Program-made: the position numbers and the translations under genes
Assembly (NCBI GenBank): GCA_011939005.1
Contig: GCA_011939005.1_4858.1
Length of the DNA: 64,000 nt
Source: a phage
Direction: 5' to 3' (one strand)
Notes under the pieces: generated by a model
The model's input: only the letters and a program-made list of their open reading frames with translations
What the model was told of the DNA's origin: nothing
Database searches by the model: none
Shown: in pieces, positions 19,336 to 21,114 of the stretch
Position numbering within the stretch: the first letter of the stretch is position 1
Layout of the letters: each line of letters begins with the position of its first letter

Positions 19336-21114
19336 TTAGCGGCCGATTTTAGCAATGTCTTCTTCGGTCGGTCTGATGTACGGGTCCAGTTTAGGATTCC
19401 GCATCATTACCAAACTTGGGTTGGTCTTCATGTACGGGTTGAGGATGTTTGCCTTAAACGGTGCCGACTTAGGAATATAGTAGACGTTACCACATTCCAG
19501 ATGCGACGCAGATGCGTGCTTAGTACGGTCGTTCAAGTTAACGGTCTTGCCTCCTTTCTTCGAACGCTTAGCATCGGTTTCGGTTTGACCGATGGCGTGC
19601 GTAGACACTGCCAATACCATTGATTCTGTAGAGGCATTGAAGAAACTGATACCGCCGTTGCTCGTAATGGTGCGCATCACCAGATTGAGCACGATCTGTT
19701 TGTTCAGTGCGTCTCGAATAGACTTCGCCGCTGTCTCTGGAGTCCGATGTTCCAACTGCCCCAGCTTCCAACGTATTTTCGAGATCGTTGTGGTAAAGCC
19801 ACGTTGGCCCAACAGTAAGTAATCGGTTACCGTGAGACGTTTTCCGTACATAGACGGAATATCATCTTGTTTGGTAAGACGAGTACGCACCATCAGCTGC
19901 GTGGTGTACCAGAGGAAATCAAACATATCCAAATCATCAGGAATGGACGGATCGTTTGCCATCAGCTCACCACGGAAGGTGCTGTTGACATAGCGTTCAC
20001 ATTCCTGGAAGTGGCTGTCCATACTGCGACTCAGTTCGATATCCGAAGGCTTCAGTCCGCGAATACTACGACCCAACACTTCGCGCCAGGAGGCTGCAGA
20101 ATTGAGGTTCGCAATATCTTCGTCCATTGCCATTTCGTTAATCTGTGTAAACAGCCCCGGCAGTGTTGGTGCACGACCGTTCTTACTGTTCTGTTTACCT
20201 GCGTAGTAGTGCGCTGCTTTGAAGAATGCGGCAGTCGCTACCAGCAACAGATGTTCATTCTGATCCCAACGCCCTGCATCGGTGTTAGGCATATCTTCAC
20301 GTTTAACCAACAGTACGTACTGGATGGTCTTCGCGAGTTGTGGCTCACCGGACTGAATCACCACATACTTCGTTAAGTCCACATCACGTACTTTAATCGC
20401 TGGCCAAATCGTCACATCAACGCCCGCATAACGCTTCACGGCTTGTTTAAAGCCATAACGCCCAAAGAGCCAATACATCAGTGGCTTCTCATCGGTGTCG
20501 TGTCCAATCTGTCCAGTTGAGACAAACAGATTCGATGTACCTGGCAAGAACAGCTGCTCAGGGCGACCATTCACCAGAATCTTCGTTGGTTTCTTACAGA
20601 ACTTGATCGACACCTTGCGGGTGAAGTCAAAGTTAATAAAGATACCACCATGCTCACGACAAATACCAGGTTGGTGGATTACAGGTGCTACGTGGTACGT
20701 TGTACCGTAGTAGTTCATTAAGCCGCCACGACGAATAAATGGTAAGCTCATCGGTCGTTGCACCGGACGGGGGTCGCCTGGAACACGGAACGAGGCCATT
20801 ACCATATACGTGTCAGTGGATGAGATGTTAATAATTGACCGGCCACGATTGTTTCGTGAATTGTTATCCGACTTCGATAACTTAAAGATAAAAGCTTCAA
20901 ACGGGGACATCTGACGGCAGCCTAACACCGTTAACCCTTCTGGTAATTTCGGGTTATCGATTTCATCATACGTCAACTCACGACGTAGAATGGTTGCCAC
21001 ACGATCATGTATCCCGTCTTTAGCTTGTGTGTACCCAACTCCTTCTGCAATTGCACGATTAAAAGGCACTATTTCGCCTGCCTCTTTAATCTTCCTAATC
21101 GCATCTTTAAACAC
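19336..21114 (-). CDS. RNA polymerase beta N-terminal-like subunit, putative
   Basis: KILVNGRPEQLFLPG resembles beta [19 protein letters not shown]; C-terminal SHLECGNVYYIPKSAPFKANILN resembles [20 protein letters not shown]; GTG start at 21114 with GAGGGAGG SD. Confidence 0.4.
   Translation of the reverse strand: MFKDAIRKIKEAGEIVPFNRAIAEGVGYTQAKDGIHDRVATILRRELTYDEIDNPKLPEGLTVLGCRQMSPFEAFIFKLSKSDNNSRNNRGRSIINISSTDTYMVMASFRVPGDPRPVQRPMSLPFIRRGGLMNYYGTTYHVAPVIHQPGICREHGGIFINFDFTRKVSIKFCKKPTKILVNGRPEQLFLPGTSNLFVSTGQIGHDTDEKPLMYWLFGRYGFKQAVKRYAGVDVTIWPAIKVRDVDLTKYVVIQSGEPQLAKTIQYVLLVKREDMPNTDAGRWDQNEHLLLVATAAFFKAAHYYAGKQNSKNGRAPTLPGLFTQINEMAMDEDIANLNSAASWREVLGRSIRGLKPSDIELSRSMDSHFQECERYVNSTFRGELMANDPSIPDDLDMFDFLWYTTQLMVRTRLTKQDDIPSMYGKRLTVTDYLLLGQRGFTTTISKIRWKLGQLEHRTPETAAKSIRDALNKQIVLNLVMRTITSNGGISFFNASTESMVLAVSTHAIGQTETDAKRSKKGGKTVNLNDRTKHASASHLECGNVYYIPKSAPFKANILNPYMKTNPSLVMMRNPKLDPYIRPTEEDIAKIGR

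Follow-up and report, generated by a model that had tools for sequence, protein, structure and literature searches.

The window, the whole 64,000-nucleotide stretch of phage DNA that was analysed, is 97-99% identical to the SPN3US-like jumbo phages of Salmonella and Escherichia (about 240 kb, genus Seoulvirus) and runs antiparallel to the SPN3US map. Gene names follow SPN3US, and the features of the locus are collected in Table 1. The gene under study encodes a protein of 592 amino acids that is 100% identical to its counterpart in Escherichia phage vB_EcoM_Lh1B and identical at 591/592 positions to SPN3US gp77 (SPN3US_0077, AEP83910.1). A sequence-only reading of this DNA had placed the gene inside a structural gene block. 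This holds for the wider surroundings, with the capsid gene on one side and the portal and other virion genes on the other, but not for the immediate neighbours gp76 and gp78-gp80, which are non-virion. Among these neighbours, gp78 has been described in the SPN3US literature as a suspected regulator, and virion protein production was no longer detectable in its knock-out. Gp78 was also considered as a homolog of phiKZ gp124 or as a fifth, gp68-like polymerase subunit, and both assignments were dropped, gp78 having no match in the PDB and tblastn with phiKZ gp68 and gp124 giving none in the window.

Table 1. Features of the locus and of the partner subunit genes (positions are those of the window)
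Feature	Coordinates	Strand	Basis or remark
gp81, portal	14156..16900	opposite to gp77 unit	SPN3US gene order
gp79 and gp80, non-virion			between gp78 and gp81; SPN3US gene order
Terminator-like hairpin directly 3' of gp78	17609..17626	minus	predicted intrinsic terminator
gp78, downstream gene in gp76-gp77-gp78 unit, essential, non-virion	17634..19304	minus	SPN3US gene order
gp77 ortholog, 592 aa, GTG start	19336..21114	minus	SPN3US gp77 / phiKZ gp123 homology, beta1/beta2 (protrusion/lobe) fold
Shine-Dalgarno GAGGGAGG	21120..21127	minus	read from sequence; 5 nt before GTG
gp76, upstream gene in gp76-gp77-gp78 unit, non-virion	21126..22154	minus	annotated ATG at 22130
Early-promoter-type motif TAGATATTATC (extended ctgagaTAGATATTATCtacgtga)	22171..22181	minus	about 46 nt upstream of gp76 ATG
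Second early-promoter-type motif TAGATATTATC	22369..22379	minus	just past capsid terminator, 42 nt upstream of 27-aa ORF
Intrinsic terminator after major capsid gene	22407..22432	minus	11-bp stem, 6 GC pairs, UUCG loop, T-run
gp75, major capsid protein	22463..24763		SPN3US gene order
gp74, head protein	24776..25354		SPN3US gene order
gp73, helicase	25315..26877	opposite to gp77 unit	SPN3US gene order
gp35, nvRNAP beta'-like C-terminal subunit, phiKZ gp74 homolog	60897..63002	minus	E = 9e-39
gp34, nvRNAP beta-like C-terminal subunit (C-terminal 332 aa), phiKZ gp71-73 homolog	63002..64000	minus	E = 2e-23

The open reading frame and its GTG codon (21114-21112) behind a strong Shine-Dalgarno sequence, as proposed by the sequence-only reading, were confirmed. 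The start region reads …ATT CTC TGA GGGAGG CCGGT GTG TTT AAA… on the minus strand, the gap from the gp76 stop to the GTG being 11 nt. Since GAGGGAGG overlaps the TGA stop of gp76 (21128-21126), translation of gp77 is likely to be coupled to that of gp76. The upstream GTG is regarded as the real start because the first approximately 100 residues are conserved across 23 homologs and because a profile of 62 family sequences aligns to phiKZ gp123 from residue 3 through 542. In the relative SPLA5c a shorter product is annotated from an internal ATG, probably an annotation error.

Genes for two further subunits of a non-virion RNA polymerase (nvRNAP) are found in the same window. Gp35 corresponds to a beta'-like and gp34 to a beta-like C-terminal subunit; the gp34 gene runs past the window end, and the part present gives weak direct matches to bacterial β around the GRHGNKG region. 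Co-occurrence with beta C-terminal fragments had been suggested as a check on the identity of the 592-residue protein, and gp34 supplies such a fragment. No homologs of beta'-N (phiKZ gp55) or gp68 were detected within the 64-kb window, and tblastn with phiKZ gp68, gp124, gp55, gp69 and gp70 gave no match there. According to the phiKZ structure papers, gp123 and gp71-73 are the β-like pieces of this enzyme, gp55 and gp74 are β'-like, and gp68 is a σ-like fifth subunit. According to the literature, these phage nvRNAPs have no alpha or omega partners.

Orthology with phiKZ gp123

The protein was placed in PHROGs family phrog_2943, "polymerase", at E = 1e-187. A Pfam scan of the protein returned no match at all, and among 62 family members no RpoB/Rpb2 or other RNA polymerase domain was found at E <= 1. 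When all PDB chain sequences were searched with phmmer and hmmsearch, the sole significant match was PHIKZ123, which is chain E in structures 7OGP, 7OGR, 8QUE and 9RJS of the non-virion RNA polymerase from phiKZ. The single sequence reached E = 3e-20, a 23-sequence profile 2e-41 and the 62-sequence profile 4e-172, the last over the full length. Cellular RpoB was never reached in these PDB searches. In hhalign comparisons with the single E. coli RpoB sequence, a shallow family profile gave no match, while a deeper one gave a weak match at E = 0.16. The relationship with phiKZ gp123 is reciprocal, each being the best match of the other (BLASTP 1e-21, phmmer 7e-26). A HMMER search of 1.84 billion representatives recovered 588 family members at E ≤ 1e-3. 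The best 150 of these are all 514-605 amino acids long, and the stand-alone β-N format is therefore conserved among those 150.

These results identify the protein as the ortholog of phiKZ gp123, the N-terminal fragment of an RNA polymerase beta subunit, and on this point the sequence-only reading was right. SPN3US gene 77 had already been designated the nvRNAP beta subunit's N-terminal piece by Thomas et al. 2016, and the purified non-virion enzyme of phiKZ, with gp123 among its subunits, has a solved structure. Co-purification as a stoichiometric subunit of an active RNA polymerase has been shown for phiKZ gp123 only. A paralog of gp123 acting outside the polymerase, with a beta-lobe fold and serving for instance as a DNA-binding regulator, was weighed against orthology. 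In favour of such a paralog, this family diverges more than any other part of the nvRNAP, several residues of the start-site pocket differ from phiKZ, and the neighbouring gene product is itself a suspected regulator. A tblastn survey of 185 phage records, however, gave one gp123-like place per record; no other gp123-like gene seems to be present in this phage group, and beta, of which gp34 is one part, requires a beta-N piece to be complete. Full-length colinear homology, conserved length and conserved synteny also argue for orthology, and a paralog outside the polymerase is considered highly improbable.

Virion or non-virion polymerase

The same genomes encode a second N-terminal piece of a split beta-like subunit, that of the virion RNA polymerase (vRNAP), and the gene order alone could suggest that gp77 is this protein, co-expressed with structural genes, packaged and injected with the DNA. 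The gene does lie between the major capsid gene and the run of portal and virion genes that begins with gp81 and continues beyond it, and the sequence-only reading had taken this context as a sign of a packaged virion subunit. The virion β-N proteins (phiKZ gp178 and SPN3US gp241) are about 1400-1450 amino acids long, carry a long N-terminal extension and are packaged in the head, whereas the protein in the window has 592 amino acids and no such extension. Thomas et al. 2016 identified gp241 as the vRNAP β-N, a protein of 1401 amino acids, and proposed that its N-terminal extension of approximately 400 residues guides this complex into the head. Compared with gp178 and gp241, the gp77 ortholog gave best BLASTP E-values of only 3.1-9.4 and no phmmer match, whereas gp241 pairs with gp178 at E = 0. 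The pairing of gp77 is thus with gp123, not with gp178 or gp241.

The published virion proteome of SPN3US (PMC5694885, Suppl. Table 1) lists 86 proteins identified by mass spectrometry and was measured on SPN3US, whose gp77 is 99.8% identical to the protein of the present isolate. It includes gp74, gp75, gp81-84 and the five vRNAP subunits gp241, gp218, gp240, gp42 and gp244. Gp76-gp80, gp34 and gp35 are missing from the list. Mass spectrometry of virions had been named beforehand as a check on packaging, and these published data contain no gp77.

The position beside the capsid gene is explained by ancestry. In phiKZ the same order is found, with the helicase gp118 on the opposite strand followed by the head protein gp119, the capsid protein gp120, gp121/122, gp123 and gp124, and the gene in the equivalent place is thus the one encoding a subunit of the non-virion enzyme. 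Because of this shared arrangement, the capsid-adjacent locus is ancestral for the non-virion β-N gene, and proximity to the capsid gene is therefore uninformative on packaging.

Transcription signals also separate the gene from its structural neighbour. A strong intrinsic terminator directly follows the capsid gene, and from there to gp76 the sequence ATAGATATTATCT is present in two exact copies. Six matches to the degenerate core YAKATATTAYY were counted in the window, where 0.24 would be expected; every one is on the coding strand, at 17-100 nt upstream of the start of an ORF. Alignment of the six sites gives TTTCAGA-TAKATATTAYY-TWGGKGAGA, which matches the early-promoter consensus of relatives, TATATTAC in phiKZ and TTTCARRYAKATATTATYWAAGTG in OBP/N1M2 (PMC7058600). 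AT-rich motifs of this kind serve as the early promoters for the injected vRNAP in phiKZ and AR9, where the subunits of the nvRNAP are products of early genes (PMC7598289). From the capsid terminator, the upstream motifs and the precedent of phiKZ and AR9, we infer that gp76-gp77-gp78 form an early unit kept apart from the late transcript of the capsid gene, with the hairpin behind gp78 as its probable 3' end. A sigma-70 promoter scan stayed at chance level (8 sites found, 9.8 expected), in keeping with a phage that makes no use of the RNA polymerase of its host. A literature search found no expression-timing dataset for SPN3US.

The sequence pairing, the designation by Thomas et al. 2016, the SPN3US proteome and the phiKZ locus are four independent lines that agree. 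Gp77 is a non-virion RNA polymerase subunit and is not packaged in the virion; the virion β-N reading is effectively refuted and scarcely credible.

Fold, beta motifs and the site of the split

The predicted fold of the gp77 ortholog agrees with that of the beta1/beta2 (protrusion/lobe) domains in bacterial beta and of the corresponding regions in Rpb2-type subunits. The RNA polymerase chains listed alongside the protein are those of X. oryzae β, Pol III, ASFV and Pol IV/V, and further of T. thermophilus β1, plastid β, vaccinia rpo132 and Pol I. The gp77 ortholog is a stand-alone polypeptide with the beta protrusion/lobe fold, within the format of approximately 520-600 amino acids. The AF2 model is of moderate quality (pLDDT 69), and residues 485-571 are unmodelled. 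In structural alignments the identity to bacterial RpoB is about 9-10%. Bacterial RpoB is one chain that includes the DPBB catalytic-site half, whereas the gp77 ortholog stops before the DANRALMG-type motif. Because ordinary sequence searches never reach cellular RpoB, the beta assignment rests on the fold and on the solved complexes of phiKZ and AR9.

Short beta motifs were recovered by profile-profile comparison with the N-terminal halves (RpoB 1-700) of 81 gammaproteobacterial RpoB proteins. The two best local matches, residues 34-71 with β 48-78 and residues 124-147 (LPFIRRGGLMNYYGTTYHVAPVIH) with E. coli β 127-150 (the INGTERV region), are colinear and have nearly equal residue numbers; only short motifs are recovered. 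For residues 124-147 the regional score was 20.5, while column shuffles gave a mean of 11.6 and a maximum of 20.0, none of the 200 reaching 20.5. The two peptides on which the sequence-only reading had relied do exist in the protein, KILVNGRPEQLFLPG at 178-192 and SHLECGNVYYIPKSAPFKANILN at 537-559, and neither was confirmed as a beta motif. The former, taken to be INGTERV-like, was never recovered and is not the INGTERV counterpart, because residues 124-147 take that place. For the latter, the C-terminal region scored no better than shuffles, 77 of 200 reaching its score. The region 537-559 falls within the part left unmodelled by AF2.

The pattern SH..G..P...G(I/L)(L/I)N..Y near the C-terminus, recognised by eye, is plausible as a beta feature, and its position fits the split. 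Residues 22-40 of SPN3US gp34 carry SGARASMVGGHMKSAVPL, aligned with the N-termini of phiKZ and AR9 β-C, which we take to be the counterpart of DANRALMGANMQRQAVP, the next universal beta motif, at about E. coli β 675-691. Since this DANRALMGANMQRQAVP-like motif lies on the partner gp34, the β break would fall between about β 590 and 655, in a variable stretch, which is consistent with the earlier proposal that the protein ends where a split beta would break. The split of nvRNAP β has been noted in a review not to coincide with the archaeal split and to differ from that of vRNAP β. Finally, a chance resemblance of a protein unrelated to RNA polymerase, to which the lack of Pfam matches and the failure of those two motif matches might point, is refuted by E = 4e-172 to PHIKZ123, a chain of a solved RNA polymerase, together with the fold comparison, and its probability is practically nil.

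Proposed role and comparison with known polymerases

The nvRNAP has a split beta-like subunit, and the protein is very probably its N-terminal half. After infection, the injected virion RNA polymerase would transcribe gp76-gp77-gp78 from the early-type promoters past the capsid terminator, and gp77 would be translated from its GTG, probably in coupling with gp76. Gp77 would then assemble with the beta-C piece gp34, with both beta'-like pieces, one of them gp35, and with a fifth subunit resembling gp68, with no alpha or omega, and the assembled enzyme would transcribe late and perhaps middle genes, the neighbouring capsid gene included. By analogy with the known structures, gp77 would contribute the beta protrusion and lobe, that is, the wall of the DNA channel facing the β'-like subunits. 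The pocket under its lobe, as in phiKZ GP123, probably accommodates the non-template strand where transcription starts.

In the phiKZ promoter complex published in 2026, the pocket under the GP123 lobe binds four non-template bases of T(-3)ATG(+1), the late-promoter consensus of that phage. The pocket residues were mapped onto the present protein through the 62-sequence alignment, in which identity to phiKZ is 21% and loops are uncertain. The aromatic/His/Gln core of the pocket is conserved. F151 of phiKZ corresponds to F159 (F/Y in 62/62 sequences), K158 to K167 (K/R in 58/62), H185 to F197 (H/Y/F in 60/62), Y406 to W449 (F/W/Y in 59/62) and Q466 to Q510 (Q in 59/62), while H331, here H368, is invariant and one of only two invariant columns. 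The polar residues differ, N186 of phiKZ being replaced by V198, K190 by Q202, N398 by T441, Y399 by T442, S334 by E371 and S144 by C152. The architecture of the pocket thus seems to be retained, while its base specificity may not be, since polar residues are replaced. That the nvRNAP of this group reads a start-site motif other than the phiKZ TATG, through a pocket of kept architecture and swapped base-contacting residues, is put forward tentatively, as a lead from residue comparison. If true, the beta-N subunit would be an evolvable promoter-specificity module of these polymerases.

The gene itself is already known, SPN3US gp77 having been identified in 2016 and its phiKZ and AR9 counterparts having solved structures. 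Most records nevertheless say "hypothetical protein" or simply "polymerase", and the annotation gained here is a correction of the virion-packaging inference. Neither Pfam nor ordinary HMM searches against cellular RpoB detect the family, which can be placed only through phage structures or fold comparison. SPN3US gp77, still labelled 'hypothetical protein' in GenBank, has the same length and the same gene order from gp73 to gp82 and differs at one residue, with A in place of T235. PhiKZ gp123 is a full-length colinear homolog with the same capsid-adjacent locus and the same fold, at about 21-22% identity and with 543 instead of 592 amino acids. The nvRNAP beta-N chain of Bacillus phage AR9 (PDB 7S00 chain c) shares 13% identity with the window protein, and in that phage sigma-like gp226 is the main reader of the promoter, acting on the template strand of DNA that contains uracil.

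The gp76-gp77-gp78 unit and its flanks

The gp78 homolog lies in the inferred early transcription unit gp76-gp77-gp78. A low-complexity linker occupies approximately residues 100-215 of its product, Gly-rich at first and then Pro/Ala/Gln-rich. No homolog was found by PDB sequence search, and comparison with phiKZ gp68 and gp124 gave no similarity. In SPN3US, gp78 is reported in the literature to be an essential, non-virion protein, and virion proteins were undetectable in its amber mutant. Because its gene is inferred to be co-transcribed with gp77, which encodes the β-N subunit of the non-virion RNA polymerase (nvRNAP), the gp78 homolog is considered a candidate transcription factor.

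The stretch that separates the capsid terminator from gp76 holds a 27-aa ORF, 42 nt 3' of the first promoter-type motif (22369-22379). This ORF is without counterpart in the SPN3US annotation; it may encode a leader peptide or may have arisen by chance. The perfect hairpin, which resembles a bidirectional terminator, separates the convergent gp80 side from the portal gene (14156..16900, plus strand).

Features located in the window
Feature	Position	Strand	Details
Early-promoter-type site	165-175	minus	motif match
Early-promoter-type site	1863-1873	minus	motif match
Hairpin	16930-16953	both	10-bp stem, T-runs flanking both sides
gp78 homolog	17634-19304	minus	556 aa, phrog_8185
Early-promoter-type site	22171-22181	minus	motif match
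27-aa ORF	22244-22327	minus	MEVNLERSRLVAPMFDGRGSMANGHHV; strong SD TAAGGAGA
Early-promoter-type site	22369-22379	minus	motif match
Early-promoter-type site	29443-29453	minus	motif match
Early-promoter-type site	37946-37956	minus	motif match
nvRNAP β'-C gene (gp74 homolog) and 3' part of β-C gene (gp71-73 homolog)	60897-64000	minus	

gp77 in the records of relatives

In several SPFM phage records (e.g. LR535901.1, 167815-169616), the alignment of the gp77 gene is split into up to 30 pieces, and proteins such as P0026, P0028, P0030, P0032 and P0033 match gp77 in 23-24 short stretches, with a BLAST coverage of only 5-20%. Such fragmentation points to numerous small indels or frameshifts within these assemblies, and the broken gene would then reflect a sequencing or assembly artefact and not biology. 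In the close relative Salmonella phage SPLA5c (L001, 12205-13779), the annotation places the start of the gene at an internal ATG, which shortens it by 204 nt and drops 68 conserved N-terminal residues of the product.

Partner genes and early-promoter-type sites

The nvRNAP β'-C and β-C genes adjoin, with a start/stop overlap at 63002. SPN3US β-C is annotated as one unbroken 745-aa CDS, in contrast to phiKZ gp71-73.

Six early-promoter-type sites were observed in the window against 0.24 expected, each with a minus-strand ORF 17-100 nt downstream (6/6). Their extended consensus is TTTCAGA-TAKATATTAYY-TWGGKGAGA, and the six sites agree with the published early-promoter consensus of OBP, N1M2 and phiKZ (PMC7058600).
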